Positions 2,091 to 62,730 of a DNA stretch of 64,000 bases are shown in pieces. Each line of letters starts with the position of its first letter. The stretch's first letter is position 1. The notes beneath the pieces were generated by a model. It saw nothing but the letters and a program-made list of their open reading frames with translations. It was not told where the DNA came from and did not search any database. Source of the stretch: Minisyncoccota bacterium (GTDB taxonomy: Bacteria; Patescibacteriota; Minisyncoccia; Moranbacterales; UBA1568); contig JBPPMJ010000002.1 of assembly GCA_051306005.1 (NCBI GenBank), forward strand, positions 437 to 64,436, given 5' to 3'. A program made the position numbers and the translations under genes.

Positions 2091-2099
2091 GATATATAT

Positions 2100-3511: not shown

Positions 3512-4003
3512 GTTCAAAGCCAGTTTTATCTTCTCTGAAAACTCGCTTGGGCTGAAACTTCCGTGATTTTCCAGTCTCAACAGTGGTACTCTCGCCTCAC
3601 GAAGAATGCGCTCCACTTCTTCATCGCGTTCTATTCTTTCTGGACGCTTATGCGACTTGTCATCAAGTTCGATGGCAAGTTTTGGTGAAAGATACGTCTT
3701 GTCGCATAGAACAAAATCAACTGACTTCTCGCTGATATGACGGAACGCACCGTGCCAATTCTGTCCGACAACCTTGCTGTCCACCAATGTAGGGAGATGC
3801 ACTTGAGCGAAAATCCGATATTCCTGTCCAACCGCTTCTACCAGAGTATCGTAGCATTTGTGTTCGGCTCGAGTAAGGAAAAAATCTTTGTGCTTATATT
3901 GATACTTCGCCTTTACTTTCATATTTCCAAGCTTCCCGCGCACGATACCAAATATCAAAACAATGAGGGCTACACTGCCGAAAAGAATATAGAGATTTTT
4001 CAT
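3467..4003 (-). CDS. DUF2726-domain protein (predicted PD-(D/E)xK-like nuclease fold), N-terminal membrane anchor
   Basis: 178 aa. N-terminal TM helix (LYILFGSVALIVLIFGIV). The AEHKCYDTLVEAVGQEYRIFAQVHL...DFVLCDK...IELDDKSH core is typical of DUF2726. Confidence 0.55.
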   Translation of the reverse strand: MKNLYILFGSVALIVLIFGIVRGKLGNMKVKAKYQYKHKDFFLTRAEHKCYDTLVEAVGQEYRIFAQVHLPTLVDSKVVGQNWHGAFRHISEKSVDFVLCDKTYLSPKLAIELDDKSHKRPERIERDEEVERILREARVPLLRLENHGSFSPSEFSEKIKLALNNSVEQDGVKLTRVE

Positions 4004-4217
4004 AGATTTTTTATTATATTTAAAGACTGGTTCGGGTTCGCTTTCAGGTCAATGAGTATGAACTTGTCCAAAGCTCCCTTTTCAATCAAGGCGTTATGAT
4101 ATGATTTCTAAAAATTGAGCTCTACAGTCTTATCAGAATTTTGATTACTGTGAAAAACTCATTCAAAAATTTCTTAGCAAATAAAAAGGCCTACATTGGG
4201 TTAATTTTTTATCCTTA

Positions 4218-4754
4218 TTACAATAACTTTAGAAAGTCTAATCCCAAGTAACCCACTTCAACATCCGTCATTTCTCCACTACGGAGTATCTCTCTAAATT
4301 CTTCAATGGTTTTGGTAACAATCTCTACATACTCCCCTTCGTCAAGTTTTTGTTCAGAAGTCTCCTTACAATCAGTTGCGACAAAACAATAACGAAGCAT
4401 GGTTGAGTAAGCATCGTCAGAGCACGTGCCTACAAATTGGATATTTCCTTCATAACCAGTTTCTTCTTTAAGTTCTCGTGCTGCTGAAAATTCTGGCTTT
4501 TCGTTGGCATCTAAATATCCTCCTGGAAGCTCATAGAACACTTTCTGAGGACCGGGACGAAATTGCTTCGCAAGAATAACATTTTTCTCTACATCTAAAG
4601 CCAGTACCGCTACCGCCGGACCTTCTTTTTTAATATAGAAATCGCTTTCTTTTCCATCAGGTAACTCAAATATCACTTTTTCAATTTTTCGGCTATATTT
4701 TTGAAATGCTATTTCACGCGACATTTCAATCCATTCCTTCTTTTTTTCTACCAT
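4218..4754 (-). CDS. NUDIX hydrolase
   Basis: Nudix box ELPGGYLDANEKPEFSAARELKEETGY (GX5EX7REUXEEXGU). Confidence 0.8.
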   Translation of the reverse strand: MVEKKKEWIEMSREIAFQKYSRKIEKVIFELPDGKESDFYIKKEGPAVAVLALDVEKNVILAKQFRPGPQKVFYELPGGYLDANEKPEFSAARELKEETGYEGNIQFVGTCSDDAYSTMLRYCFVATDCKETSEQKLDEGEYVEIVTKTIEEFREILRSGEMTDVEVGYLGLDFLKLL

Positions 4755-26912: not shown

Positions 26913-27572
26913 TTATACGCCTCGTTCCAGTAATACTATCTCCATTGATTTTCCCTCTAAATCTTTTTTCTTGACATTCAACTTGTTGATGGCTTCCGAA
27001 GGGCACGTACCGATAGCATCACAGAATACTTGTTGCGTCTCCACTGCCAAGGTCAAACCCGGAATCTTGTAATGCATTGGGATAATAATCTTTGGCTCTA
27101 TCTTGCGTGCCAATTCTACCGCTGTGGCAACCTCCAGCGTCTCTCCGCCACCGATAGGGAGAAACAAGATATCCGATCCTGCCAACTTATCCAAAATATC
27201 CGGCGTCAAATCATGCCCCAAGGCACCAAGGTAACAAATATGCAATTCTTCGCTCTCAAAAATAAAAATAGTGTTTTGACCTCGTTCGGCACCCATTTGT
27301 GTATCACGATAGCTAGCAAAACCCAAAGCTGATATGCCTTTTACCGCGTATTCACCTGGTGCATGCAACAAAAGTGTCGCTTCTTTGAAAGTATCTAGCA
27401 ACATCTCTGAAGGCTGATGCGAAAGTAACACGATATCTGCCTGTCCTTGTGGCGGACGCAAGCCAGAACTCTTCTGCACAGGATCTGTCCACATAACAAC
27501 ATCTTCTGTCGCACGACCCGCTGGTTTGGTGCTGATTTTGAAACAAAAATCCCCGTAATATTGTATATTCAT
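26913..27572 (-). CDS. MBL-fold metallo-hydrolase
   Basis: Beta-lactamase-fold pattern (DIVLLSHQ ... PIGG ... PMHY). 219 aa. Confidence 0.55.
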   Translation of the reverse strand: MNIQYYGDFCFKISTKPAGRATEDVVMWTDPVQKSSGLRPPQGQADIVLLSHQPSEMLLDTFKEATLLLHAPGEYAVKGISALGFASYRDTQMGAERGQNTIFIFESEELHICYLGALGHDLTPDILDKLAGSDILFLPIGGGETLEVATAVELARKIEPKIIIPMHYKIPGLTLAVETQQVFCDAIGTCPSEAINKLNVKKKDLEGKSMEIVLLERGV

Positions 27573-27964
27573 AAAACACGTACTGAAAATTCATACACTA
27601 GGTAAGAAATACTTCCTCATCTACCAAGGATTTTTCTAGTTTATCACAAAGACTCACCCTCTGTCTATGGATTACTTCTGATCAAAGAACCGCTCTTAAT
27701 TTTTGGATTGTCTTGCCAAAAAAACGTTCTTGAGCTATACTTTTCATAGATATGTTTATTATCGTTCTCTATATACGAAAACGTTGATACTATCAAAAGC
27801 ACTTAACTGGATAATACAATTGAATAGGAAGGATGCTATAATCCTTGCACTCAAGCGTTATCTGGACACCTTATTTTACAATGGTGTTTTTTGCTTTCAA
27901 AGGCGTTATCCCCTCTAATTTTTTTCACAATCTCGGGATAGGATTGTTCAACACAACAAGTATT

Positions 27965-34857: not shown

Positions 34858-35844
34858 CTATAGATTCAAAGGGATTTGTTCAATACCATAGTCTACGAAT
34901 CTTTTATGCACTTCTTGTATAAAGATGCCCGTGGAACTCAGGAGGCCTTGCATCTTGGCAAGCACAGAAATTTGTCGAAGTGGGTCATTTTCAACGGATT
35001 GTAATTCATCCTTTATTTGTATGAGGTATTGCGTCATTTGCAGTGCCTTCACATGCATATCTAACATATTTTCTGGTACCTCAACATCTTGTAATTCTTC
35101 TAAAATCTTTTTACCTCGTTCGGAAAGTTGTTCGATATAATTAAAATCTCCAGATAATAATGCAGAAATTGATTCATTGGAAATAGTCGTCAAGACACTG
35201 TCCAGGCCACTCTCATCTTGAAAGGTGTTCGGCGAGTTATTTGCCATAATATAGGATATGACAGTGAGATATTCGATCGTATAGCTCCGTTCCTGCTCTT
35301 TCCGGTCCTTATCTTTCAAATGTTTTGATAATTTCTTTATCTTGATAGACTTGATATCCACCTCAGGCAATACCACGTCCGTTGCCTGTGCATTCAGCAC
35401 TTTTTGTACCGAAGCATTAACTGCATCCAGAGAAACTTCCTGATTATTTGTATCTGTATTTTTTAAGATATGCACAATTTCATCAGAAACTTGTTGCGTC
35501 AAATTTTCAGAGCCATTGGTTACTGTACGAACATTTTCCAAAGGTACAGAAGTGGTAACCTTGTCCCCAGGTGCGGGCTTTAAAGGATCATATCCACTTC
35601 CCACCTCTACCCCATCACTATATCCATCACCATCCGTATCTTTGACAAAACTATCAGTGCCGTATAATTTTTCTTCATCATTACTTAATCCATCCTGATC
35701 CGAATCTTGAAAAATATTTTTTCCAGAAATATTTTCGTCTGCAAAAGCAAAACAAGCTACACTCAATAATAAAAGCGTGCAAAAAATCAAAAAGGAAATT
35801 CGAGTATTTTTCTCAGAAAAGGACAACGCTGAAACATTCCACAT
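34858..35844 (-). CDS. Secreted protein with thrombospondin-type-3-like calcium-binding repeats
   Basis: Signal peptide, then DSDQDGLSNDEE...DTDGDGYSDGVE (DxDxDG repeats). Confidence 0.45.
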   Translation of the reverse strand: MWNVSALSFSEKNTRISFLIFCTLLLLSVACFAFADENISGKNIFQDSDQDGLSNDEEKLYGTDSFVKDTDGDGYSDGVEVGSGYDPLKPAPGDKVTTSVPLENVRTVTNGSENLTQQVSDEIVHILKNTDTNNQEVSLDAVNASVQKVLNAQATDVVLPEVDIKSIKIKKLSKHLKDKDRKEQERSYTIEYLTVISYIMANNSPNTFQDESGLDSVLTTISNESISALLSGDFNYIEQLSERGKKILEELQDVEVPENMLDMHVKALQMTQYLIQIKDELQSVENDPLRQISVLAKMQGLLSSTGIFIQEVHKRFVDYGIEQIPLNL

Positions 35845-36256
35845 ATTTTTTCTTTTTATATGTTTGAATTATAACATATTTATTGATACATGCCAGACAC
35901 ATGGATCTATATATTCAGTTACCACATTAATTCAAAAAAGCGACCTGTACAATATTAGCTATGGTAATGGTCTTATAGTAAGATATCTCTATTATTTGAT
36001 AGCCATCTTACATATTCTACTTTCTCTTATCCCTATACAGATTCACAAAATAACTCAGTATCTTTTCTTATTCCTAACTCCACTGTATTATTTTTTAATT
36101 GACTTATTTAAAGTTTTATGTTATAATATCATTTCCTTACAACAACAATACCTAATATAAGCCAAAACATCAATTGCCCCTGTTGTATATCCCAAAAATA
36201 ATGGTCCAACAACATACCAGGGGTAATCGCTATCAGAAGAGATTGTGCCAAAAAAC

Positions 36257-37822
36257 TCAATATTTTCGTTTTCTGTCTTTCCTGCATCTCGTCTGATAGT
36301 CTGCTTTGTTCCACGTGGAACATTTTCGTATTTCTTTTGGAATTGTTCCACGTGGAACAAAGAAACCATACCAAATAACCATAAAAAAGAAAAAGAGAAA
36401 TGCTAATAGACCTATAATGCCTGTTTCAGCGAAAATTAAGAGTAAAACATTGTGAATAGGTTGATATTGCCATTCTAATAACTGCTCTGAAAAAAATAAT
36501 TGCATAGTCAAAACATATTGTCCTATGCCCACTCCCTGAAAAAAAACTTCTTGAGAAATCTTGGAAAGTGACTTGATGTAAAAAATGCGCTCTGTTAAAG
36601 GTTGTATTAAAAGATATATTGGATCACTCAATAACCAGAGAGCGCTTATGAAAATAACACTCCCTATAAAAAAGTAATGTTCCACGTGGAACATTTTTTG
36701 GAATCTTTGGTGGAAGAGTAGTATTTTTCCATAAATGTTCCACGTGGAACATTTATTAAAAATTTGAACAGTAAAAGAAAAGGATGTTCCACGTGGAACA
36801 TTTTTTGGAATCTTTGGTGGAAGAGTAGTATTTTTCCATAAATGTTCCACGTGGAACATTTTTTGTAAACAAAACAAGAAGTACAACATACCAAGAAAAT
36901 AGCCTATTAAAGCAGATTTAGAGAAACTTATACATAAACCAGCTAGTTGCACAAAAAGAATTCCTCGATATAACCATTTATGTTCCACGTGGAACATTTG
37001 AGAAAATAATAAACGGTACGCAAAGGTCATTAGTAGTGCTAAAGCCATAAAACCACCAAAAATATTCGGATGCGGAAAAAAGGCATAGCCACGAATAAAA
37101 ACATCCCCATTAAGTATTATCTTGGCAATTCCTGGTTTATCAGGCGCAAGAATACTTTCATGAAAAAAAGTAATGCCCAAAGATCTTTGATACAGAAACT
37201 GTAATACACCTATAAATGACTGTATTAAAGCAGAAAAAATAATGGATGTCATAATGATACGATAAATGTTCCACGTGGAACATTTATTCAAAATTTGAAC
37301 GATTAAAGAAAGGAATGTTCCACGTGGAACATAATTTATTGTACATTTCTTATGTTCCACGTGGAACATAAGAATACTTTTATCCAATGTTCCATGTGGA
37401 ACATTGGATAAAAGTATATAAACATAGAGTCCATAACCTTCTAGAATGTGTAGCCAAGCTGAAAAAGCCAACGGAATGCTTTCTGACCAAAAAATAGATG
37501 TTGCTGACCATACTAGAAAAAAGATAGGCATCATTAATGGTAGAAATAAATGTTCCACGTGGAACATTCTTCTCCAGTATTCTATTGACAAAATATATCT
37601 TTTATTGTTTATTATGAATAATAGGATAGTGGATAAAAGGAGAATATCAGAAAGATATATTGAAATATCTTTATATTCATTAAATGTACCCGAAGAAGAA
37701 ACATTAATCAGTACTTTTCGCACAGAAAAAGGGAGTGAGAAAAGAAAAAGGATAAAAAGTATCCTGTGTCGCAAGAAATAATGTTGCGCTTGTTGAATTT
37801 GTAAAAAAGGAAGGAAAATCAT
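36257..37822 (-). CDS. O-antigen ligase (Wzy_C) family membrane protein carrying multiple in-frame palindromic-repeat insertions; intact versus pseudogene unresolved
   Basis: Wzy_C-like blocks ISFSKSALIGYFLGMLYF and HNVLLLIFAETGIIGLLAF are separated by repeat-derived peptides MFHVEH, NVPRGT and KCSTWNI (the three frames of ATGTTCCACGTGGAACAT). The ORF-track N-terminus (to 38014) runs antisense through tRNA-Ala, so I trimmed to the first Met beyond it. Confidence 0.5.
   Translation of the reverse strand: MIFLPFLQIQQAQHYFLRHRILFILFLFSLPFSVRKVLINVSSSGTFNEYKDISIYLSDILLLSTILLFIINNKRYILSIEYWRRMFHVEHLFLPLMMPIFFLVWSATSIFWSESIPLAFSAWLHILEGYGLYVYILLSNVPHGTLDKSILMFHVEHKKCTINYVPRGTFLSLIVQILNKCSTWNIYRIIMTSIIFSALIQSFIGVLQFLYQRSLGITFFHESILAPDKPGIAKIILNGDVFIRGYAFFPHPNIFGGFMALALLMTFAYRLLFSQMFHVEHKWLYRGILFVQLAGLCISFSKSALIGYFLGMLYFLFCLQKMFHVEHLWKNTTLPPKIPKNVPRGTSFSFTVQIFNKCSTWNIYGKILLFHQRFQKMFHVEHYFFIGSVIFISALWLLSDPIYLLIQPLTERIFYIKSLSKISQEVFFQGVGIGQYVLTMQLFFSEQLLEWQYQPIHNVLLLIFAETGIIGLLAFLFFFFMVIWYGFFVPRGTIPKEIRKCSTWNKADYQTRCRKDRKRKY
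36308..37565. repeat. Array of 12 copies of an 18-22 bp perfect palindrome (A)ATGTTCCACGTGGAACAT(T), 14-mer core GTTCCACGTGGAAC
   Basis: Core copies at 36308, 36345, 36679, 36737, 36786, 36843, 36982, 37268, 37307, 37344 and 37552, plus a CATG-centre variant at 37389 embedded in the 32-bp palindrome ttatccaatgttccatgtggaacattggataa. All lie inside one ORF. The palindrome is stop-free in all six frames. Confidence 0.9.
36678..36843. repeat. 108-bp tandem direct duplication inside the palindrome array (58-nt unit at 36678-36735 and 36786-36843)
   Basis: atgttccacgtggaacattttttggaatctttggtggaagagtagtatttttccataa occurs twice, separated by a 50-nt palindrome-containing spacer that itself resembles 37265-37322. 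Confidence 0.85.
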
Positions 37823-37924
37823 AAATATTTTTATAACAAAGCAGTTTGTACTACCATCAAGACGAAAGAGAGTCCATTGACGAATACCTAAAATAACCGT
37901 TATGATAAGAAAAAGGTGCGCAAA

Positions 37925-37997
37925 GGGCCGTTGGCGCAGTTGGTAGCGCGCCTCCATGGCATGGAGGAGGTCGCCGGTTCGAATCCGGCACGGTCCA
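37925..37997 (+). tRNA. tRNA-Ala (anticodon GGC), no encoded CCA
   Basis: Acceptor GGGCCGT with the G3:U70 Ala identity pair; anticodon stem-loop CCTCC-atGGCat-GGAGG; T-arm GCCGGTTCGAATCCGGC. Confidence 0.85.
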
Positions 37998-38111
37998 CAC
38001 ATCAACTCTCTCATATACTGTCAAACATCGCAATCTTGATTACAACTTATTTAATCGTATTCCATTATAATAAAAAGTTTATTTTTACTAAAATATATCT
38101 TTGACATATCA

Positions 38112-50890: not shown

Positions 50891-52033
50891 ATGAAAAAGA
50901 TATTTTATTTTTCTTCCGGCTTTTTAATACTTTTTCTGATTTTTTGGTTAGCTTATAATTTTGCTTTCAAAAACAATATCAATAACCCCAGCATCACAAG
51001 TTCTGAAACTGATACTTTGATACAGCAAAATGATTTTTCAAAAAATGTACCATCTGCTACGGTTGTTTTTACCAATCCTCTCAATGAAAGCCTGTTAGGT
51101 GCTACTGTTTCAGCTAATAATCGTCTCTTTTATTATTCTTTGGATGATCAATCCATAAAATCCGCCTCTCTAGAAGGAAAGGATAAAGAAGTATTGATGA
51201 GTCATTTACCTGGTACACCGGAGCGCATCATCTGGTCACCCAAAAAAGATCAGGCGCTTTTGTTACTCAAACAAGGATCAATGAGTTTGTGGCACTTGAT
51301 TGACATCGGAACCAAAACACTCACGCCTCTCAAAACAGAAATGTCCCGTATCGTTTGGAATAATCTAGGTGATAAGATTTTGTATCAATACACCGATCAA
51401 GTTACCAAAAAACGTACTTTAAATATTTCCGATCCTGATGGAAAAAATTGGAAAACACTCACTGACATTAAATCAGATTCCTTTATTGCTCCTATCCCTC
51501 AAAGCACGAGTATCTCTTTTTGGAACAAACCCAATGCTTTGGAAAAAACTTTTTTTGAAAGTATTTCTGTTCTTGGAGGAGACCGCCGTATCTTGCTGAC
51601 GGAAAAATTTGGCGCAGATTACCTCTGGTCTCCTGATGGGGATAAAGTATTGGTAAGCGCAACCACCAGCAAAGGAGGTGGCATGGTCTTGCTTCAGAGT
51701 ATGAATAGTAATGGAGGGGAGCTTAAAAGCCTGTCTGTGCCCACGCTCATATCAAAAGCAGTCTGGTCGAGTGACGGAAAAACCATCTACTATGCCCTAC
51801 CTGGAGCCTTGCCTGAAAACGTTATGTTGCCTAATGATTATTTTGAGAAGCCCATTTTTACCAAGGATACGTTCTGGAAAATCGATACATCCACTGGCAA
51901 GCAAAGTCGCCTCGTCGATCTTCAGGATATTACCCAAAATATAGATAGTGCTGATCTTTTTCTCTCACCTAAAGAGGACATACTCTTTTTTACCAATCGC
52001 AATACACGAAAATTATATCGCATTGATCTTTAG
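50891..52033 (+). CDS. Membrane-anchored TolB-like beta-propeller (PD40 repeat) protein
   Basis: An N-terminal anchor and repeated WSPKKD / WSPDGDKVL / WSSDGKTIYY propeller blades. Confidence 0.5.
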   Translation: MKKIFYFSSGFLILFLIFWLAYNFAFKNNINNPSITSSETDTLIQQNDFSKNVPSATVVFTNPLNESLLGATVSANNRLFYYSLDDQSIKSASLEGKDKEVLMSHLPGTPERIIWSPKKDQALLLLKQGSMSLWHLIDIGTKTLTPLKTEMSRIVWNNLGDKILYQYTDQVTKKRTLNISDPDGKNWKTLTDIKSDSFIAPIPQSTSISFWNKPNALEKTFFESISVLGGDRRILLTEKFGADYLWSPDGDKVLVSATTSKGGGMVLLQSMNSNGGELKSLSVPTLISKAVWSSDGKTIYYALPGALPENVMLPNDYFEKPIFTKDTFWKIDTSTGKQSRLVDLQDITQNIDSADLFLSPKEDILFFTNRNTRKLYRIDL

Positions 52034-53340
52034 AAACGTTGTGGTGTCTTGGTATCGTTCTTTTTGTTCCTTTGTAGAGGATCCACTGATAGTATTTGGG
52101 TGCAGAGTGTCATACCCAATCCTACAATAATCCAAAATGTGAACGCAGAATCTGTCTTGAAGAAAGGGGTATCAGTAAATCCCAGAAAGAAAAAAAACGT
52201 GAGTAGTGCTATAAGCGTCGTACTTATCTGTCGTACAATAACATCATCGCATTGATGCCGACATCGAAACATATACCAAAACCAAAACATTCCTAGCAAT
52301 AAAAAACTCACCATACCAATGATGCTTGTTTGCAACCAAAGTGCCAAGAACAGATTATGTGGTTGAGGAACGGCCCATTCCAAATAGGGCGGAAAGTGTG
52401 GTTGATACAATAAGTACATCTCTTGAAAGCGCCCCAAGCCGATTCCAAAAATAGGCTGATCAGCAATCATATACAAAGAAACATTCCAGATTATTATTCG
52501 TGAAGCCATCGAAGAATGTGTGTTATATTGCGTCAGCGATTGCCACTTTTCACTATCAATTTCAAAAAAAATCAGCCCAATAGCGATCACAAGCACTACC
52601 ATAAGCGACAGTATACCCTGTTTTCCAAAAAAAGATTTTCGGTACGTCATAAGCAAAAAAGCGAGTACTGAAACAAAGAGTGCCCCCCATGCCGTATAAG
52701 AATGTGTCAAAAAAATAGCGATGCTAAAAACACTGAGAAGAAAGGATATTCCTATTCGAGAATATTTTTGATGGGATTGTGAAAAAGAGAAAAAGAAGTG
52801 GAGCGCCAACAATATACCAGGAGCTAAAAAGAAGGCTAAATAATTCGGAGAAGTATACCATCCAGCCAAACGATTATCATAGGTCAGCGTTCCTTGTACA
52901 AAAAATATCAAACTGAAAATGGCACTGACACTATTCACTGCCAACCAAACACCGAATATGTTTTGATAGTGTTGTACGGTGGGTTGTGTTTGATGCCAAA
53001 GCCACATCCAGAGTAGTGGCATCACAAACCATGTTTTCAGCATTCCTAAACCCGTCAATGTGAATGGATTCAGAAAAAAAGAAAGAAGAGTTCCTGTTAA
53101 GAAGAGTATGAGAGTCAATGTAAAAGGGCGAGGATATTGAGAAAACTGAACACGAGTGAACTCCCTTGACCAACACCCAACGACATATGATATACAAGCT
53201 AAAATAATCGGTATTTCAATGCTGTAGACAGGAATGCCAACTATATTCCATTTTATATGAGCGAATGGTAAACATATAACACTCAGTAGCAATAAAATAT
53301 GCATCTGCGCTCTGATTGATAAAAAAAGTTTCTTATACAT
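52030..53340 (-). CDS. O-antigen ligase (Wzy_C) family membrane protein
   Basis: At least 10 TM; QPHNLFLALWLQTSIIGMVSFLL C-terminal block. Confidence 0.6.
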   Translation of the reverse strand: MYKKLFLSIRAQMHILLLLSVICLPFAHIKWNIVGIPVYSIEIPIILACISYVVGCWSREFTRVQFSQYPRPFTLTLILFLTGTLLSFFLNPFTLTGLGMLKTWFVMPLLWMWLWHQTQPTVQHYQNIFGVWLAVNSVSAIFSLIFFVQGTLTYDNRLAGWYTSPNYLAFFLAPGILLALHFFFSFSQSHQKYSRIGISFLLSVFSIAIFLTHSYTAWGALFVSVLAFLLMTYRKSFFGKQGILSLMVVLVIAIGLIFFEIDSEKWQSLTQYNTHSSMASRIIIWNVSLYMIADQPIFGIGLGRFQEMYLLYQPHFPPYLEWAVPQPHNLFLALWLQTSIIGMVSFLLLGMFWFWYMFRCRHQCDDVIVRQISTTLIALLTFFFFLGFTDTPFFKTDSAFTFWIIVGLGMTLCTQILSVDPLQRNKKNDTKTPQRF

Positions 53341-54628
53341 ACTTTTTAGTTGTTACACTAGAAGAAGCAGGGAGGAGGCACAGCGCCATAAGTATATAAA
53401 GGAGTGGAAGGATATGCACTGAGAAGAGTGGTGTTTCAAAAAATGCGTGGACAAGAAAAAGTGCGACAGAAGCAAAAGCTGACAAAGCAAAACGATCATG
53501 CGTGACGTGCCATTTACTCCAGGCAAAACACATTCCAAGGAGTAAAAATCCTAAAAAAAGAATTGCACCGATAACGCCAGTTTCTACGGCAATATCTAGA
53601 AAAAAATTATGTGCATAGATAGGCTCACGATAAAATGCGCTTGGTTTGACAACTAATGGATAATTGCCAAGCCCAATACCGATCCAAGGATGCGTAGAAA
53701 GTACTTGTCCTGCTTCTTGCCACAAACGCAAACGTTCAGCGTTGGACCCCTCTACCAACGAAAAGCTGGTCAAAAAACGGGCGCCAATGGGACTGAACGC
53801 GCATATAAGTATGCTGAGAACAAAAAAAGCGCTTACCCTGAAAAAATATTTATTTATAAATCCACGCCAAGGAACGGAAGAAAGAAAAAAGACACTAAGA
53901 CCGGCGAGTAATCCCACATACCCTCCTCGAGAAAAAGTCAACGCATCGGCAAGTAATAAAATAACAACGCAGAAAATATTAAGAAGGCGCTGTTTGCCCG
54001 TACTTTCAAAAAAAAGTGTCAAAGCAAAGGGAATCGTCATTCCGAAAAAAAAGGCTGTAATGTGCGGATCGGGGAAAAATACGGATGTGCGCAACATTGT
54101 ATGTCCAGAAATATTGACCAATAAGCTTGGATAATTGGCGACGGTGCCACTAAATTCCATCCCCAAAAAAAATGGAAGGATAGAATGTACGAGGAAAAAA
54201 AACACTTTCTCTACCCCAAAAAGAAATTGTGCCACAAAAATACCGAGTCCGATGCTGGCGGAAACAGTCGCACTGTATACCCAAAATGTATAAAATGTTT
54301 GACGAAGGTGCTTATCCTGTAGTGTTGCATAAAAGACAAGAAACAAAGGTGCGAATGTGAGTAAAAACAATGCCTTTCTCATAGCCCATAAGGGATTTTC
54401 CGCCCACAGAAATGAACCAGTACTCCAGAAAAGAAACGCTGTAAGAAGAAAAAGTATTCGAGCTGGTGGAAGAATGAAATTTCGATGTGTCAGGCTACGC
54501 ACCATCCACCAAAGAAAAAGGCTCAAAGAAAAGAGACGAATAACCGCTAGGTCAATCCCTGGGGCCGGAGAAAGTGCAAATTGAAAGGGGAGAAAGACGA
54601 TAAAAAAGAGGACAAAAAAATCAAACAT
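53333..54628 (-). CDS. O-antigen ligase (Wzy_C) family membrane protein
   Basis: TFSRGGYVGLLAGLSVF and HNFFLDIAVETGVIGAILF signature blocks. Confidence 0.65.
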   Translation of the reverse strand: MFDFFVLFFIVFLPFQFALSPAPGIDLAVIRLFSLSLFLWWMVRSLTHRNFILPPARILFLLTAFLFWSTGSFLWAENPLWAMRKALFLLTFAPLFLVFYATLQDKHLRQTFYTFWVYSATVSASIGLGIFVAQFLFGVEKVFFFLVHSILPFFLGMEFSGTVANYPSLLVNISGHTMLRTSVFFPDPHITAFFFGMTIPFALTLFFESTGKQRLLNIFCVVILLLADALTFSRGGYVGLLAGLSVFFLSSVPWRGFINKYFFRVSAFFVLSILICAFSPIGARFLTSFSLVEGSNAERLRLWQEAGQVLSTHPWIGIGLGNYPLVVKPSAFYREPIYAHNFFLDIAVETGVIGAILFLGFLLLGMCFAWSKWHVTHDRFALSAFASVALFLVHAFFETPLFSVHILPLLYILMALCLLPASSSVTTKKYV

Positions 54629-54729
54629 ATCAGTCTAAAAATGATTTCTCTTTATAGTAACACCCTTGCGTATGAATAGAAACATAACACTGATATTGAA
54701 TGCTAAAAATGAACGAAAAGACAAGGCTG

Positions 54730-55539
54730 TTAGTTTGTGGATATACGTCGGCGACAGCACCATTGTAAAGCAATAAGCACACACTGTTCCCAATACGGAC
54801 GATGTTTTTGAAAATACAGACGTTGAGAGGCAGAAAAATAAACTTTTTGTTTTTGTTTCGATGCCTGACTCTTTCCGCCAAAATGCAACAAAGGTAACTC
54901 TGTATGATGAATTACCTGAAAATTTCGATGGCATATCCGAGTACAAAGATCGGTATCCTCAAAATACAAGAAAAATTGCTTATCAAAACCGCCTATATTA
55001 CAAAACAAGTCTTTCCGCACACAGAGACCGCATCCGCTGACCCAATCCACTTGCGTGAATGGTTTTTGTGTTTCAACTATTCCTCTTGATGGAAAAATAT
55101 TGTTCCAAAAAAGACGCTTAAGACTTGGGGTGTGCCCAAAACTCCATTTTTCGATACAATGTTGATTATCTATTACTGTCATTCCAAGAACACCGAAACG
55201 GGGATGTTGCAGGAAAATATTATAAATATCTTGCAAAAATACCCCTTGCCATACAGTGTCAGGATTCACAAAAATAAGAATCTCGCCTCGCGCCTCATGA
55301 GCGCCTCTATTACTTCCTTGACCAAAACCGATATTCCTCCCACTTTCTATGATGATACAGTTCATTTGATGACACAAGCGTTGTAATGTTACGCTCTCCC
55401 GTGGATCATTATTCACAACAATGATTTCAAAAAATTCTCTTCGCGTCTCCAATGTCACGATACTTTTGAGAGCAGTCGCAAGATATTGGGCACTTTTATA
55501 ATTGACAAATATAAGTGAAATGTGGGGCTTATTTTCCAT
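54730..55539 (-). CDS. Glycosyltransferase family 2
   Basis: HISLIFVNYKSAQYL (GT-A N-terminus) and the DxD region. Start trimmed to the internal Met. Confidence 0.7.
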   Translation of the reverse strand: MENKPHISLIFVNYKSAQYLATALKSIVTLETRREFFEIIVVNNDPRESVTLQRLCHQMNCIIIESGRNIGFGQGSNRGAHEARGEILIFVNPDTVWQGVFLQDIYNIFLQHPRFGVLGMTVIDNQHCIEKWSFGHTPSLKRLFWNNIFPSRGIVETQKPFTQVDWVSGCGLCVRKDLFCNIGGFDKQFFLYFEDTDLCTRICHRNFQVIHHTELPLLHFGGKSQASKQKQKVYFSASQRLYFQKHRPYWEQCVLIALQWCCRRRISTN

Positions 55540-56419
55540 AAAAATAATCTTTATACGCTTGAGAGACAGAGCGGGTGACAGGGTCTTGTTTCCAACCTCT
55601 ATCAACACTATTTTTTATGATTCGTAAACCAAGATATATCCACATACTGGGACGCATGCATACAGGTGTCCAACGTTGGAAAAACATCAATCCGGAAAAA
55701 ACAAGAAAGTACGTTTTCCGCGGGCTCATCTGACTCACTTCACTATGTTCTACTCGCGCATCTGTCACAACCCGTGGGATAAATCCAGCTTGTCTCGCAC
55801 GCAGAGAATAGTCAACGTCTTCATAATACAAGAAAAATCGTTCATCCAAGAAACCAATGTGTTTTATCAGATCTCGGTGTATCAACATAGCACAACCAGT
55901 GAGGAAATCACTGGGATACTGATCCATACCACACTCTTCTTTGGTCGGTAAGACATGTTCAGCTCGCATACGAAAAAAATTCACTCTACCTTTAGCAAAC
56001 CACAAACGATTTCTTTGCGTCTCAAAGATAGTCGGACTCAGCAACACTGAAGCGGATTGTCGAGAAGCAAGTATTAAACATTTCAATGATTGCCGATCTG
56101 CCTTGGCATCAGCATTGAATAACCAACACCATTCAGCACCTCGTGTTAAAGCGTGTATTATACCGATATTCATACCCCTTGCAAAACCATAATTTTCTTC
56201 ATTCTTTATAAAGCTTAATTGAGGAAAACTATGTTGAGCCATTGCCATTGATTGATCATCAGAATTATTGTCAACGACAATAATATCCTTATAAGGATAT
56301 TCCAAATCATATAATGATTGTAGACATGCCAAAAGATACTCTGCGCCGTTATAATTCAAAACGATAATTCCTACCTTTGGAAACATTTCCATAACCGAAT
56401 ATAACCTCACCTTTCTCAA
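55529..56419 (-). CDS. Glycosyltransferase family 2
   Basis: VGIIVLNYNGAEYLLACLQSL ... DIIVVDNNSDD. Confidence 0.75.
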   Translation of the reverse strand: MRKVRLYSVMEMFPKVGIIVLNYNGAEYLLACLQSLYDLEYPYKDIIVVDNNSDDQSMAMAQHSFPQLSFIKNEENYGFARGMNIGIIHALTRGAEWCWLFNADAKADRQSLKCLILASRQSASVLLSPTIFETQRNRLWFAKGRVNFFRMRAEHVLPTKEECGMDQYPSDFLTGCAMLIHRDLIKHIGFLDERFFLYYEDVDYSLRARQAGFIPRVVTDARVEHSEVSQMSPRKTYFLVFSGLMFFQRWTPVCMRPSMWIYLGLRIIKNSVDRGWKQDPVTRSVSQAYKDYFYGK

Positions 56420-56421
56420 AA

Positions 56422-57879
56422 TTATACTAATGAAGCGTCAATCGCCACTTCATTTGAAACGTCACGCCGAGAGAAAAGACTGGCTAACTCATCAGCACTG
56501 ACAGCCCGTGAAATCCATAAGAAAGAAATATATACCCCAACACTCACACTACCAGCCAGAAAAAAAGAAACGGGGGCAAGTAAAAAGAGTATTCCAGACA
56601 TTAAACATCCCGCAAAAAGAATTTTCTCAAGGTGTTTGAATGATGGTTTGTATCCGACATATTTATACGCCAAAAAACTCGTCAACATAACCACAAGCAT
56701 TTCTGTGGCGACAGATGTACTCGCCGCGCCGATATAAGAATAACGCGGGATGAGCACTATATTAAAACTAATATTCAACACCGCAACTATGATTAATAGT
56801 TGCATCAATTTGGCTTGAACATTGCCCACCACCAAAAGCATGGTAAAGAATTGCCCAAAAAAAATACACCCCAAAGCAAAGACTAAGATACGTAACACTA
56901 CTACGGATTCTGAAAAACTATCTCCACTGACAAACCTGATAATATCAGGAGCTAAAAAATATGTTCCCGCCACGAGAGGCACAATAATTATACAAAAAAC
57001 CTTGAAGGTCTTATCGGCAATTTCCTGAAATTGTGTCCGGTCACTAAATATATAGCGAGAAAGGAGGGGAAGAATGAGCCCTACAAGCATGGCAGGGAAA
57101 AAAATCAGGTTTTCCATCACTTTATACGCAACATTGTAAATACCGACATGAGCGCTTGACTGAAACATAGAAAGTATAATCGTATCCATCTTAAAATAGG
57201 TAAAAGTAATGATGGCCGTCGCTCCCATAGGAAGTGACTCACGTAAGAATTCCTTCCAAAATGAAACATTGATTTGCGGAGTAAATGTGACATAACGTCG
57301 GCTGAAAAAAAATACTGTCGTGGCATTAAAACAAAGAGAGACGAGAAAAGTGGTAACGATCGCCAAAAAACCAAGATCAAAGTGGACCACAAGCATAACT
57401 GCCAGCACCTGCAATAATTTGCCACAAAATTCAATCAGTGCCACCTTGTCCATAGCAAGGCGTTTCTGAAAAATACCATTCAAAAAGAGTGAAAGGGTAG
57501 AAAAAATAACTGCTCCAGACGCAATAATAATACCAATTTTCACATCATTGGGGTAATGAAAAAGGATGACAAATAAGGGGGCAATCAGAAAAAGAGTACA
57601 GGAAGATACTAGGCGTAAAGAAAGTACTTTACTCAGAATACCTGCCTCATCCGCTCCTGCGCGAGAAATTTCTCGTGCAGTCACTGAACTTAATCCTAGA
57701 TCGGCTACCGATGAAAAAAGTGCAAAAAAAGCAAGAATAGTTGAATATGCTCCAAACCCCTCTTGACCTAAATAACCGGTAATTAACCGAATAGAAAGTA
57801 GGGAAAGCACCACTGTTGAAAACACCTTCAAAAAAGAATTGAAGATGACATTATAAGCGATTTTACGAGCGAGGGCCAT
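56422..57879 (-). CDS. Polysaccharide biosynthesis protein / oligosaccharide flippase (Wzx-like, MOP superfamily)
   Basis: 485 aa, 12-14 TM, typical Wzx N-terminus (NSFLKVFSTVVLSLLSIRLITGYLGQEGFGAY). Confidence 0.65.
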   Translation of the reverse strand: MALARKIAYNVIFNSFLKVFSTVVLSLLSIRLITGYLGQEGFGAYSTILAFFALFSSVADLGLSSVTAREISRAGADEAGILSKVLSLRLVSSCTLFLIAPLFVILFHYPNDVKIGIIIASGAVIFSTLSLFLNGIFQKRLAMDKVALIEFCGKLLQVLAVMLVVHFDLGFLAIVTTFLVSLCFNATTVFFFSRRYVTFTPQINVSFWKEFLRESLPMGATAIITFTYFKMDTIILSMFQSSAHVGIYNVAYKVMENLIFFPAMLVGLILPLLSRYIFSDRTQFQEIADKTFKVFCIIIVPLVAGTYFLAPDIIRFVSGDSFSESVVVLRILVFALGCIFFGQFFTMLLVVGNVQAKLMQLLIIVAVLNISFNIVLIPRYSYIGAASTSVATEMLVVMLTSFLAYKYVGYKPSFKHLEKILFAGCLMSGILFLLAPVSFFLAGSVSVGVYISFLWISRAVSADELASLFSRRDVSNEVAIDASLV

Positions 57880-57907: not shown

Positions 57908-58402
57908 TCACTCTCCTTCGCTATCTATTGATGTTCGTAAACATACCCTTATTTTTCGTTCTAAACCTTGACCAATACTTTCTGTCATCACCTCTGGGTG
58001 TGTTGTAAGGTATGTGTGTATGATTTTACGTTCATAAGCAGGCATGGGACGGAACATGACAGCAACCTTTTCACGCAATACCTGTGAAACTACCTGTTCC
58101 GCTTCTTGTTCCAAAAACAACTTTTTTTGCAAAAAATAACCATTGATATCTACTATGATATTCAAACGCTTACCTGTTTGTTGTCGTGTCAAGACACGGA
58201 CAATATGTTGTATGGCTGATAAATTGACACCTTGCTGACCAATGAGAAAATTTTGATCCTGTGCTACTTGTACGGTACAAAAAATATCATCTGGGCGCCC
58301 TTCCGGAGAAGTTACATCAACTGCTCCCTGAAAACCCATTTTCTCCAAAAGAGAAGCAAGGATATTTTTCACAGTTTCTTGATCTATTTTTTCTGGAATC
58401 AT
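57908..58402 (-). CDS. Jag/KhpB RNA-binding protein (KH + R3H domains)
   Basis: A KH-like GQQGVNLSAIQHIV and the R3H ERKIIHTYLTTHPEV. Sits downstream of yidC, as is usual. Start trimmed to the internal Met. Confidence 0.7.
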   Translation of the reverse strand: MIPEKIDQETVKNILASLLEKMGFQGAVDVTSPEGRPDDIFCTVQVAQDQNFLIGQQGVNLSAIQHIVRVLTRQQTGKRLNIIVDINGYFLQKKLFLEQEAEQVVSQVLREKVAVMFRPMPAYERKIIHTYLTTHPEVMTESIGQGLERKIRVCLRTSIDSEGE

Positions 58403-59124
58403 ACTGATGCTTTTGTACGAGACAATGTTATTTGTTGCGCAATCATAAAGAGTGTTGAGACAAGCCAATACAGTGAAAGGGCTGCTGGAAATGTGGCTCC
58501 GATAAAAAAGGTGAGTCCTGGACCGAGATAGAGCATCTGTTTGTTCATTATAGTCGCAAAATCAGGTTCTGTGGAGGATGTCTCTTGTTTTTTTGGTATA
58601 TTCTGAGAAAGCATTTTAATTTGGTAATATTGAGCGATAGCGGAAAGGATCGCAAAAACGTAATTCGGCTTTGTTAGATCCAAAAAATGCAGAAATATGT
58701 GATTGATAGCGCCTGGATTCTGAATAAAAGTATACAAATCGCTAGATTGAGCGATAAATCCAGCATGAGCAATATTGATAATCACCTGATAAATAGCTAT
58801 AAGAAAGAAAAGTTGAATAATGAGCGGAAGGCAACCAGCAAAAGGGTTCATTTTTTGTTCCTTATAAAAAGCCATCAAAGCCTTAGTTTGTTTTTCTTTA
58901 TCATTTTTATGCTTTTGTTGTAACGCTTTGATTTGTGGTTGCAGTATCTGCATTTTTTTCTGCGACTCAATTTGTTTTTTTGATAAAGGTAAGAGAAAAA
59001 ACTTCAATAAAATGGTGGTAATAATGATAGCGATGCCAAAATCATATCCCGGCACAATATTATAGAAAAAAATCAGCGTATTGTAGATCGGGCGATAAAT
59101 AAGAATGTCAAAAATATGGAGCAT
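58399..59124 (-). CDS. yidC: Membrane protein insertase YidC (short form)
   Basis: 241 aa. The block GCLPLIIQLFFLIAIYQ is typical of the YidC/Oxa1 core. Confidence 0.85.
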   Translation of the reverse strand: MLHIFDILIYRPIYNTLIFFYNIVPGYDFGIAIIITTILLKFFLLPLSKKQIESQKKMQILQPQIKALQQKHKNDKEKQTKALMAFYKEQKMNPFAGCLPLIIQLFFLIAIYQVIINIAHAGFIAQSSDLYTFIQNPGAINHIFLHFLDLTKPNYVFAILSAIAQYYQIKMLSQNIPKKQETSSTEPDFATIMNKQMLYLGPGLTFFIGATFPAALSLYWLVSTLFMIAQQITLSRTKASV

Positions 59125-59618: not shown

Positions 59619-59897
59619 AACATTATATAACAGTTAGATTTTAGGAACAAAATTGTCTTTTTAGTGTACCAGAATAAAGAAAAAAGTCAATTTTCAAGCA
59701 CCTTCTTTTTATTTGAGTCATATTTTTCTTTTCTTAAATCAGGGGTATATAAATACATATTTCCTCTATTTTATTGAATGAAAAGCTTTTTATAGAGACT
59801 TATGCACACATTATCCACAAAATCAACCATTTTTTCATAGGCTACATCTTTATCACATGATATACTGTGGATAATCTTTTCTTGATAGATACGAGTT
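59619..59897. promoter_or_regulatory. oriC part 1: rpmH-dnaA intergenic region with two perfect DnaA boxes
   Basis: TTATCCACA at 59811-59819, its reverse complement TGTGGATAA at 59867-59875, plus the near box ttatcacat at 59850. Confidence 0.6.
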
Positions 59898-61313
59898 ATG
59901 ACACATGAAGAGCTTTGGAAGGCTGTATTAGGTCAAATGGAACTTTCCATTTCAAAGGCAAATTTTATCACCTGGTTCAAAAATACCAGTATCTTAAGTA
60001 ATCAAGAAGGAATTATCACCATTGCTGTTCCAAATGGATTTGCTAAAGAGTGGCTTGAAAACAAGTATAATATTTATTTACTCCGTGCGCTGAAAAGTTT
60101 TGATCCTACTATTCAGTCCATTCGCTGTATTATTACCACGGAACAAGTCGCCCCTCCCGCGATTATTCCCTATACAGCGAGACATATTGATGCCGTCAAA
60201 CCCCCTGAACACACCGGATTTGTCCGAAAAAAACTGATTGAAAAACCATTTTTTACCGCAACAGCGCCATCAAATCCGGTTTTCCATGAGACAAATCTTA
60301 ATAATCGTTATACGTTTGATAACTTCATTGTCGCTGAAAATAATGAACTGGCGCGCGCGGCGTGTTATGCTGTGGCACAAAATCTTGGTTTGGTTTATAA
60401 TCCACTCTTTATTTACGGCGGGGTCGGTCTTGGTAAAACACACCTCTTGCAATCTATTGGAAATGAAGTTGTCAAAAATCACCCAGAAAAACGTATTAAA
60501 TACATTAATTCTGAACGTTTTACTACAGAACTCGTTGATTCTATTAAAAATCAAAAGATTGATGTTTTCAAAGAATATTATCAACAGATGGATCTTTTAA
60601 TAATAGATGATATTCAATTTCTTTCTGGACGCGAAAAAACACAAAATGAATTCTTTCATATTTTTAATGCGTTGTATCAACTTAACAAGCAAATTGTTAT
60701 CTCAAGTGATCGCCCGCCAAAAGCCATTCCCACACTCGAAGAACGGCTCAGATCACGTTTTGAAGGAGGAATGATTACTGATATCAGTCGCCCACATTTA
60801 GAAACAAGAATTGCTATCTTGGAGTCAAAGATAGCCGAGAGAGGTATCCATATAGACACTCCGGCACTACGTTTTATTGCTGAAAATATCACTCAGAATA
60901 TACGTGAATTAGAAGGTGCTCTCAACCGAGTGATTGCTTTTAGTGAATTTCATCGTGTTTCACCGACTTTGGAAAATACAGAAAAAATTCTCGCTCAATT
61001 GATTGAAAATAATAAAAAAGTGATTCAAGTAGATGATATTTTTCGTGTGATTAGTGAATATTATAATGTAACTAAAGAGGATTTGATAAAAAAAGGACGA
61101 AAAAAGGAGATATCTCATCCTCGTCAAGTTATGATGTTTCTCCTTCGTGATGAATTACAAATACCTTTCTCGACTATTGGTGATACTCTTGGAGGAAGAG
61201 ATCATACTACTGTTTTACATGCTTTTGAGAAAATAAATACACAAAAAGAAAGTACTCTTCGTTTAAAAGAAGAATTAGCTACACTGAAAGACCGTTTATA
61301 TTATCCAGTATAG
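59898..61313 (+). CDS. dnaA: Chromosomal replication initiator DnaA
   Basis: Walker A GGVGLGKTHL, the sensor and arginine-finger region, and the C-terminal DNA-binding domain (the TLKEIGDAFGG-type segment reads here as STIGDTLGGRDHTTVLHA). Confidence 0.95.
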   Translation: MTHEELWKAVLGQMELSISKANFITWFKNTSILSNQEGIITIAVPNGFAKEWLENKYNIYLLRALKSFDPTIQSIRCIITTEQVAPPAIIPYTARHIDAVKPPEHTGFVRKKLIEKPFFTATAPSNPVFHETNLNNRYTFDNFIVAENNELARAACYAVAQNLGLVYNPLFIYGGVGLGKTHLLQSIGNEVVKNHPEKRIKYINSERFTTELVDSIKNQKIDVFKEYYQQMDLLIIDDIQFLSGREKTQNEFFHIFNALYQLNKQIVISSDRPPKAIPTLEERLRSRFEGGMITDISRPHLETRIAILESKIAERGIHIDTPALRFIAENITQNIRELEGALNRVIAFSEFHRVSPTLENTEKILAQLIENNKKVIQVDDIFRVISEYYNVTKEDLIKKGRKKEISHPRQVMMFLLRDELQIPFSTIGDTLGGRDHTTVLHAFEKINTQKESTLRLKEELATLKDRLYYPV

Positions 61314-61575
61314 TGGATAATATTGTATAACTACCAATTTTCCGTGGAAAGAAGCCGTATAAATATATCCTCTTTTGTTGATAATTTTACCACTTTATTT
61401 TATAGTAAGTTTTATGCTCTAATTTATCCCTTAAAATATCTTTTTATTAGTGAGAAATGATAGAAAAAATGCTTTATTAAAAAGAAAATTTATAGTTATC
61501 CAGTTATCCACAGTCCTAAGTAATAATAATAGATTTTTTAAAAAATATTTTTATTAATTTTTATAGATAAATTTT
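61314..61575. promoter_or_regulatory. oriC part 2: dnaA-dnaN intergenic region with DnaA boxes and AT-rich putative DUE
   Basis: TTATCCACA at 61504-61512; near boxes TTATCCAGT (61301, 61496) and AGTGGATAA (61313); a ~55-nt run of about 90% AT at 61520-61575. Confidence 0.55.
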
Positions 61576-62730
61576 ATGCAACTTATTTGTACGCAAGAAA
61601 ATTTTAGTAAAGCACTTTCACATTTAGAAAGAGTTGTAGGAAAACAGATGACTCTTCCTATATTAAGTAATTTTCTTTTGGAAACAGAAAATGGGCGTTT
61701 AAAAATTTCTGCGACCAATTTGGAAATTGGTGTCATTGTTTATATAGGAGCAAAAATAAAAAAAGAAGGGAGAATTACTATCCCAGCTAAAGTATTAAGC
61801 AACTTTGTTTCCCAGCTTCCCTCTGGAGATGTCCTTTCTTTGGAGAGTGACGGTATTGGTTTGAAAGTGGAGAGTGCTGTCTATAAAATACGAATCAAGG
61901 GATTGGATGGAAAAGATTTTCCGCTTATTCCACAGTACGTTGATGATTACTTTTTTTCATTTCCGGCTCAGACTCTCAAAAATGCTCTTACAAGAGTTTT
62001 ATTTTGCGTTAGTCTTAATGATGCACGTTTAGAATTAACTGGAGCACATATATTCTTTTATAAAGATCAGATTCATTTGGCGGCTACGGATAGTTTTCGA
62101 TTAGCGGAAGAAATCATTCCTTTTACTGAATATGGGAGCGGATATAAGGATTTTTTGGAGAAAAATCCTTCACTTATTATTCCGAGAAATACGCTTTCAG
62201 AAATAATGCGGGTTATAAATCCGGAAAGTAGTGAGGTGAAAATCGCTTTACGGGACAATCAAATATTTTTTGAAATAGATGGAGTGCAAATCATTTCACG
62301 TATTATTAATGGAAAATATCCTGATTATAAGCAAATTATACCAAAAAGTTTTTCTTCTCATTTTATTTTGGAACGAGAAAGTTTTCAGCGGGCGATCAAA
62401 ATCGCGCATAATTTTTCTTCATACGCATCAGGTGAGATAACACTCTTTTTTGATGGAGAGAAGAAAGAATGTATCGTGTCGTCTGTTTCTCAAGAAATCG
62501 GTGAAAATAAAGCTATTCTTACTCTAGAACCACTTCAAGGAACAGGGATAGTAACGCTTTCTATAAATCCACGCTACATTTTGGATGGTATAAATGCTTT
62601 TGGAGGGGAAAAGATTGTTTTCTTGGTAAATGATGGGATAAGTCCCGTTGGTATTCGTCTCTATGATGAAAAAGAGGCTGAAAAAGAAGAAAAAAACTAT
62701 CTATATATTATCATGCCAATCCGCAAATAA
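61576..62730 (+). CDS. dnaN: DNA polymerase III beta sliding clamp
   Basis: 384 aa, three-domain clamp, MQLICTQENFSKALSHLERVVG typical N-terminus. Confidence 0.9.
   Translation: MQLICTQENFSKALSHLERVVGKQMTLPILSNFLLETENGRLKISATNLEIGVIVYIGAKIKKEGRITIPAKVLSNFVSQLPSGDVLSLESDGIGLKVESAVYKIRIKGLDGKDFPLIPQYVDDYFFSFPAQTLKNALTRVLFCVSLNDARLELTGAHIFFYKDQIHLAATDSFRLAEEIIPFTEYGSGYKDFLEKNPSLIIPRNTLSEIMRVINPESSEVKIALRDNQIFFEIDGVQIISRIINGKYPDYKQIIPKSFSSHFILERESFQRAIKIAHNFSSYASGEITLFFDGEKKECIVSSVSQEIGENKAILTLEPLQGTGIVTLSINPRYILDGINAFGGEKIVFLVNDGISPVGIRLYDEKEAEKEEKNYLYIIMPIRK

Follow-up and report, generated by a model that had tools for sequence, protein, structure and literature searches.

The 64,000-nucleotide stretch of DNA analysed here (the window) comes from a Minisyncoccota bacterium (GenBank assembly GCA_051306005.1, contig JBPPMJ010000002.1). 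It contains, inside a single gene for a membrane protein, an array of twelve copies of a short palindrome. These palindromes are very probably chromosomal parS sites, the loading sites of the partition protein ParB, and would jointly form the origin-proximal centromere of this small Patescibacteria chromosome (Candidate Phyla Radiation, CPR; Moranbacteria-like). ParB binding is suggested by the identity of the sites, by their location and by the pattern of constraint acting on them. If so, the array would offer the first concrete picture of a centromere in a large group of uncultivated, ultra-small bacteria.

Palindromes and their sequence match to parS

The region 36000-38100 of the window was read directly. 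When one mismatch at most is allowed, GTTCCACGTGGAAC occurs twelve times, always within 36307-37566 (1.26 kb), and no copy is present in the rest of the 64 kb window; dinucleotide shuffles predict 0.01 copies. Eleven of the twelve are exact, while the remaining one is GTTCCATGTGGAAC at 37389-37402. The exact 16-mer of the array is TGTTCCACGTGGAACA, and all twelve copies fit the 16-bp chromosomal parS consensus TGTTNCACGTGNAACA, one of them with a single central mismatch, where 0.32 matches would be expected in the window. The density is about 9.5 sites per kb and the spacing is irregular, ranging from about 31 to 337 bp. The 18-mer is free of stop codons in every frame, and all three frames are used: five sites are read as FHVEH, three as VPRGT with a fourth as the degenerate VPHGT, and three as CSTWN. 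On these points, namely twelve stop-free palindromes in 1.26 kb of one open reading frame (ORF), translated in three frames, the initial annotation of the region is borne out. Its description of every copy as a perfect palindrome of 18-20 bp is too narrow, since the perfect palindromes measure 16, 18, 20, 26, 18, 22, 18, 26, 18, 28 and 20 bp and one site is mismatched at its centre.

The 16-mer is the sequence of parS2 and parS3 of Pseudomonas aeruginosa and of the parS of Pseudomonas putida, and the Myxococcus xanthus site is TGTTCCACGTGGAACG (PMC4368675, PMC7022226). All 16 positions of TGTTCCACGTGGAACA are thus identical to an experimentally validated Pseudomonas parS.

The location of the array points in the same direction. 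According to Pfam annotation of about 60 ORFs, the window has the content of an ordinary small-genome chromosome (gyrA, dnaG, rpoD, PNPase, ftsH, ribonucleotide reductase, ribosomal proteins and 11 tRNAs). A replication-origin region occupies 59800..61512 (+), with dnaA (59898-61313) and perfect DnaA boxes at 59811, 59866 and 61504; rnpA, yidC and jag (57908-58468) lie upstream, dnaN (61576-62730) follows, and the cumulative GC skew has its minimum at about 57-61 kb. The array is therefore origin-proximal, at a distance of 22.3 kb from dnaA. Elsewhere in the window, gene orientation flips at 27572-27845, roughly 32 kb from dnaA, where the GC skew changes from about -0.15 to about 0. An origin at this strand switch, near 27.7 kb, was rejected because it lacks DnaA boxes, whereas the dnaA region has both the boxes and the skew minimum.

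A mechanism can be modelled on the known ParABS systems. ParB/Spo0J would act as a CTP-dependent DNA clamp, with the 16-bp parS as its loading site. Dimers would nucleate at each site, close as clamps and slide onto the adjoining DNA, so that twelve sites within 1.26 kb might load ParB at high capacity. The partition complex formed in this way near oriC would support segregation and the loading of SMC. The array itself would grow by duplication of three-site modules and shrink by deletion between neighbouring sites.

Several results weigh against this reading, and most of them concern the binding protein. Neither parB nor parA is present in the 64-kb window. A hidden Markov model built from 43 ParB sequences found no match in 1.16 Mb of related array neighbourhoods, and neither gene was found within 10 kb on either side of the related arrays, about 85 in number. 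A tblastn search with Bacillus subtilis Spo0J, a query validated by ParB matches in more than 50 non-CPR loci, had no match in the window or in any locus of the CPR. The literature searched yielded no paper on ParB or parS in Patescibacteria or the CPR, and likewise nothing relevant on the coded peptides or on parS in combination with O-antigen ligase. Moreover, 64 kb of the genome are visible, and the exclusivity of the array holds within that window.

The missing parB and the silence of the literature would also fit conserved sites for a protein other than ParB, for example a lineage-specific regulator or a nucleoid protein on a CACGTG-centred palindrome, or a role outside segregation, such as silencing or roadblocking of the host gene. 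This alternative seems unlikely in view of the match to validated parS over the whole 16-mer, of variation that is tolerated at parS-consensus positions (see below) and of the position near the origin. Furthermore, we know of no other protein family that reads this site, and parB need not adjoin parS. The initial annotation had mentioned a dense array of symmetric protein-binding sites as one possible interpretation; it is this interpretation that is supported, with the sites now named as canonical parS near the origin.

Host protein and conservation of the array

All twelve sites fall inside the minus-strand ORF 36257-37822, as had been noted at the outset. Its product of 521 amino acids is identical to the annotated protein 'Minisyncoccota bacterium ACSLEX_00620' (NCBI) of this metagenome-assembled genome (MAG), encoded on a 66.9-kb contig. 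A longer, ATG-started ORF extending up to 38014 is not credible, as it overlaps tRNA-Ala. The description of the product as a Wzy_C membrane protein needs qualification: its own match to Pfam Wzy_C (PF04932) reaches 26.5 bits and remains below the gathering cut-off of 31.7, but two orthologs (L013 and L015) score 44 bits, above the cut-off, and a precomputed PF04932 match is present in many homologs. Its probable membership of the WaaL/Wzy_C family rests on these orthologs and on a predicted fold that matches WaaL. An AlphaFold2 model of the ortholog P0005 (pTM, the predicted template modelling score, 0.81) has as its best match in the PDB the WaaL O-antigen ligase 7TPG, with a probability of 1.00 and a TM-score of 0.56 on the target. 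N-terminal, middle and C-terminal family motifs are present in 62 of 120 homologs and 27 columns are invariant across 63 aligned homologs. Taken together, the shared motifs, the invariant columns, the model and the match to WaaL indicate that the host is a real protein, with a predicted WaaL-like polytopic fold of 12 helices.

In the P0005 model, all 14 sites are situated in non-helical loops, mostly with low pLDDT (predicted local distance difference test) values, and the parS-coded loop segments are probably disordered. By helix count, the site-bearing loops all emerge on one face of the protein, while the loops with invariant residues (R36-K37…N49-E50; R259…H266-P267-N268; Q464-P465-H467; D567-H568) are on the opposite face. 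If the topology is that of WaaL, the loops coded by parS would be on the cytoplasmic side. As in the WaaL/Wzy_C superfamily, the host protein is polytopic and keeps conserved loops on one face; it differs in forming a distinct CPR subfamily, with the motifs FNEY…YLSDI, FPHPN, SFSKSA, WQxQPxHN and FDHYFWDIQQGQ, and in having the loops of the opposite face expanded by parS-coded segments. About 13% of the protein is encoded by the sites alone, so that the previously given share of 25-30% repeat-encoded sequence stands only when spacers within the three-site modules are included.

Two further Wzy_C paralogs in the window, at 52030-54628, are strong Wzy_C matches and carry no copies, in agreement with the initial annotation. 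They stand in tandem within what appears to be a glycan cluster (52030-57879, minus strand) that also encodes two GT2 glycosyltransferases and a Wzx-like flippase and is located directly upstream of jag, yidC and rnpA. The homolog with the parS sites is located elsewhere in the window.

Along the window, the array begins with site 1 (TGTTCCACGTGGAACA, 36307..36322), where the annotated frame gives CSTWN and that of the conserved C-terminus FHVEQ, and site 2 (36344..36359), where the two frames give VPRGT and CSTWN, respectively, and which is a likely deletion junction. Sites 3 (36678..36693, FHVEH), 4 (36736..36751, CSTWN, inside a 26-bp perfect palindrome), 5 (36785..36800, VPRGT) and 6 (36843..36858, FHVEH) follow. 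Site 7 (36981..36996, FHVEH) stands singly and is kept in 32 of 34 aligned orthologs. Next come site 8 (37267..37282, CSTWN, again inside a 26-bp perfect palindrome), site 9 (37316..37331, VPRGT), site 10 (37353..37368, FHVEH, inside a 28-bp perfect palindrome at 37347-37374) and the degenerate site 11 (TGTTCCATGTGGAACA, 37388..37403), in which a central CpG transition leads to VPHGT. The last, site 12 (37551..37566, FHVEH), is also a single site kept in 32 of the 34 orthologs.

The array bears traces of local rearrangement. A 98-nt two-site module is present in two copies with 92% identity (36665-36762 and 36772-36869), which is a recent local duplication within the array. A 76-nt two-site module at 37262..37337 is 89% identical to 36731-36806, which is evidence of module duplication or of gene conversion. 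Sites 10 and 11 lie in palindromes far longer than the 16-mer, the latter at the centre of a 44-bp palindrome (37374-37417) with one central mismatch, and their flanks differ in orthologs; the long palindromes at 37347-37417 suggest palindrome extension by template switching.

A homolog search returned 428 relatives, mostly MAG proteins of Moranbacteria or Parcubacteria, and orthologs at 40-51% identity hold 8-18 of the three peptides. As this search was word-seeded and hence biased towards the repeat peptides, a second, unbiased sample was assembled with non-repeat peptides only (YG[LF][FM]PHPN and WQ.QP.H), giving 79 metagenome loci (L132-L210). At least one site is present in 78 of these 79 genes. 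In total, the genes (152 kb) contain 620 consensus parS sites, against a single one in 787 kb of flanking DNA. In five orthologous loci that were examined together with 10 kb of DNA on either side, the gene contains 9-17 sites and the flanks contain none; these loci share with the window the order rbfA, tRNAs, host gene, TSP3 protein, ftsH, tilS, gmk, S1, lactamase_B protein and gyrA. An alignment of 34 sequences places most sites in the same column and the same frame (for example 32/34, 30/34, 33/34, 32/34 and 34/34); site positions and frames are common to 26-34 of the 34 orthologs at 40-50% identity, and lineage specificity is limited to some of the three-site modules. In a distant ortholog with conserved synteny (L131, 35% identity), the gene has three TGTTTCACGTGGAACA sites and one decayed site, and there are none outside it. 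The shared positions and frames, the synteny and this minimal array argue that the array is ancient and vertically inherited rather than the outcome of a recent invasion.

Among the relatives, a Parcubacteria ortholog (L128) has three sites (10405, 10771 and 11185) that are B. subtilis-type variants, TGTTCCACGTGAAACA or TGTTTCACGTGGAACA. An array of 17 sites lies on the 766-kb contig JBAQEZ010000003.1 of GCA_049287005.1. A contig labelled Bdellovibrionales (L063, GC 0.34) encodes a CPR-type host protein at 724-2262 (minus strand) with seven parS sites; it may be a mis-binned or mislabelled Patescibacteria contig.

The initial annotation had compared the array to Rickettsia palindromic elements (RPEs), that is, to a short mobile palindromic element, of RPE, REP (repetitive extragenic palindromic) or MITE (miniature inverted-repeat transposable element) type, inserted repeatedly and in frame into a tolerant gene. 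RPEs are mobile elements of about 100-150 bp that are dispersed over many genes. Modules have indeed been duplicated within the gene, relatives differ in their number of sites (from 0 to 17), the palindrome is extended at some sites, and the idea that the site-bearing segments are insertions holds in one sense: the three-site modules are additional loop sequence that distant homologs and the two paralogs of the window lack. Among orthologs, by contrast, most positions are conserved, so that most of the peptides appear there as ordinary conserved sequence in shared columns and frames, which the initial annotation had itself named as a result that would refute an invasion. With the exception of one site in the 787 kb of related flanks, the motif is also confined to this gene, in the window as well as in those flanks, the unit is 16 bp long with no element body, and no RAYT (REP-associated tyrosine transposase) or IS200-type transposase was found among about 60 window ORFs scanned with Pfam. 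Mobile insertion is therefore a very improbable origin of the array. Like RPEs, the array is palindromic DNA that is tolerated in frame within ORFs and adds peptide outside the core fold; its difference lies in the short unit, the restriction to one gene, the conserved positions and the identity to a known protein-binding site.

Constraint on the DNA and reading frames

The variation among sites follows the rules of a DNA-binding site. Of 696 sites with up to two mismatches in the 79 unbiased loci, 563 are exact; the mismatches cluster at the two positions that the parS consensus leaves as N (5 and 12) and, in the form of transitions, at the central CpG. The degenerate site 11 of the window falls in the latter class. 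The 16-mer also dictates which residues can stand beside the coded peptides, and no others occur: M, L or V (codons ending in TG) before FHVE, H or Q (CAx codons) behind it, and I, N, K, T or M (Axx codons) behind CSTWN. Every peptide copy that was seen in DNA is encoded by the identical 16-mer, with zero synonymous variation.

These features bear on the question of whether the repeats are functional peptide motifs, maintained by selection on the protein in the loops of a membrane protein. The perfect conservation of the peptides among orthologs is what such selection would produce. Nevertheless, one DNA word is kept in three frames and gives rise to three unrelated peptides, without any synonymous variation, which excludes selection at the level of the peptide; in addition, the flanking residues obey nucleotide rather than amino-acid rules and the loops are predicted to be disordered. 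Protein-level selection for the motifs is accordingly scarcely conceivable, and selection appears to act on the DNA and not on the peptide.

A second pattern concerns the frames of neighbouring sites. When neighbours in the 79 loci are spaced by up to 80 bp, the distances leaving a remainder of 1, 2 or 0 upon division by three number 167, 81 and 10, so that the same frame is used in only 10 of 258 cases. For spacings above 80 bp, the three classes are nearly uniform (121, 109 and 97; same frame in 97 of 327). The protein data agree, with 10 of 586 close neighbours in the same frame. The spacing counts are phylogenetically non-independent, and the class above 80 bp provides an internal control of equal relatedness. 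In the lineage of the Parcubacteria ortholog mentioned above (L128), short spacings are mostly of class 2 and not class 1, and the modules rotate through the frames in the opposite order. Helical phasing was considered and rejected: the common spacings (31, 34, 37, 40, 41, 46, 49, 50, 52 and 59 bp) are without a periodicity of about 10.5 bp.

The avoidance of a common frame may have its origin in deletions between close perfect repeats. Deletions that preserve the frame would be tolerated and same-frame neighbours would thereby be lost, whereas out-of-frame neighbours would be protected, since a slippage deletion between them would frameshift the protein and be selected against. This leads to the more speculative notion, to which we give rather little credence, that centromere and host gene are functionally coupled. 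In one version, the coding constraint would protect the array, and the frameshifted C-terminus of the window's own gene would represent one such slippage deletion. In another, co-transcriptional membrane insertion (transertion) of the 12-helix protein would tether the ParB-parS complex to the membrane, which might aid anchoring or segregation in ultra-small CPR cells, and ParB occupancy could in turn gate the expression of an envelope-glycan enzyme.

This C-terminus departs from the earlier statement that the frame is kept across every insertion. The conserved C-terminal part of the host protein (…LLDHYFWDIQQGQLMFWLILG…; 36129..36293, minus strand), some 55 codons, is out of frame with the annotated ORF and belongs to the ORF 36129-36374, which is 55% identical to residues 513-591 of P0005 (E = 5e-25). 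The C-termini of orthologs read …VPRGT…CSTWN…MFHVEH…FDHYFWDIQQGQLLLW, while the window has two terminal sites only. At 36344, the upstream frame reads the site as VPRGT and the downstream frame as CSTWN, which is the pattern expected from a deletion between two adjacent sites. Apparently, a deletion between neighbouring sites, with the loss of one of them, has frameshifted the last 55 or so codons and has left the remaining sites intact. On the other side of the balance, the frameshifting deletion rests on ortholog comparison, and the Logan contig from another run that reproduces 35836-36335 with 100% identity starts 13 nt upstream of site 1, so that it supports the downstream part and not the junction.

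The sequence derives from a MAG, the 3' end of the host ORF has this odd frameshift and the contigs of this organism in Logan end at the array, but an assembly artefact in the form of a collapsed or chimeric repeat is hardly credible, as equivalent arrays exist in more than 85 independent assemblies (NCBI, ENA, JGI, Logan), the 3' flank and first site are exact in the independent run, and the repeats (16-28 bp) are shorter than the usual assembly k-mers.

If the palindromes are parS, the array offers a clear natural example of one sequence that carries two codes: the protein around the sites has diverged down to 30% identity, and yet the DNA site remains perfect in all three frames. The rarity of close neighbours in a common frame points to a way in which protein-level selection could stabilise a repeat array against deletion. 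In practical terms, FHVEH, VPRGT and CSTWN, together with the host gene, may serve as markers for the origin-proximal region in fragmented CPR bins, and they would account for odd 'repeat' peptides in annotated CPR proteins.

Comparison with known centromeres

An observation elsewhere in the window, unrelated to the array, is a SoFic-like Fic/DOC protein (PADLOC SoFic, 152 bits) that adjoins a 285-aa reverse transcriptase (RT) at 7491-9648 (minus strand). The latter matches Pfam RVT_1, the generic PADLOC RT model (162 bits) and DRT UG17/UG4/UG26 (about 97-99 bits). The two may form a defence gene pair.

As in bacteria with known chromosomal parS, such as B. subtilis with its Spo0J sites and P. 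aeruginosa with parS1-4, the array consists of several sites near the origin, and its 16-bp palindrome is identical to parS2 and parS3 of P. aeruginosa. The location of parS sites within coding sequence is normal. The difference lies in the concentration of 12-17 perfect sites in 1.3-1.4 kb of one gene, in the fact that the same gene hosts the array throughout the clade and in the lack of a nearby parB. When the representative genomes of GTDB were scanned for pairs of perfect sites at a distance of 15-45 bp, at least 120 loci from many phyla were obtained. Most of the 120 loci listed have 2-3 sites, and in more than 50 of them parB is found within the 8-kb locus; outside the CPR, closely paired copies of this 16-mer thus usually adjoin parB among the matches listed. 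The cluster of an Acidobacteriaceae MAG (L114), with 11 sites in 1.7 kb (1027-2761), is about 1 kb upstream of parB (3798-4676) and apparently non-coding. This dense perfect-parS cluster and two others (L065 and L066) are not inside one long ORF.

The centromere of plasmid F, sopC, is made up of twelve 43-bp repeats with ParB sites and resembles the array in that many close palindromic partition sites act, or would act, as one centromere. However, sopC is a regular, non-coding tandem with a different site, whereas the array is irregularly spaced within coding sequence and made of chromosomal-type sites. It contains no regular head-to-tail units in the manner of sopC, and only modules of 76-98 nt are locally duplicated.

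Comparable in density is the parS cluster of M. xanthus, which is reported to have 22 sites in about 3 kb and is located 4 kb upstream of parA (PMC3899335). Both are dense clusters near the origin with near-identical sites (TGTTCCACGTGGAACG in Myxococcus), at 7 per kb there and 9.5 here. The Myxococcus cluster adjoins parAB and is not described as lying in frame within a conserved protein gene, while the CPR array is co-inherited with the ORF of a membrane protein, in which all three frames are used. Chromosomal parS clusters of high density are therefore already known; the novelty lies in an entire array that, throughout a clade, is in frame within a single conserved gene for a membrane protein, with no parB nearby.

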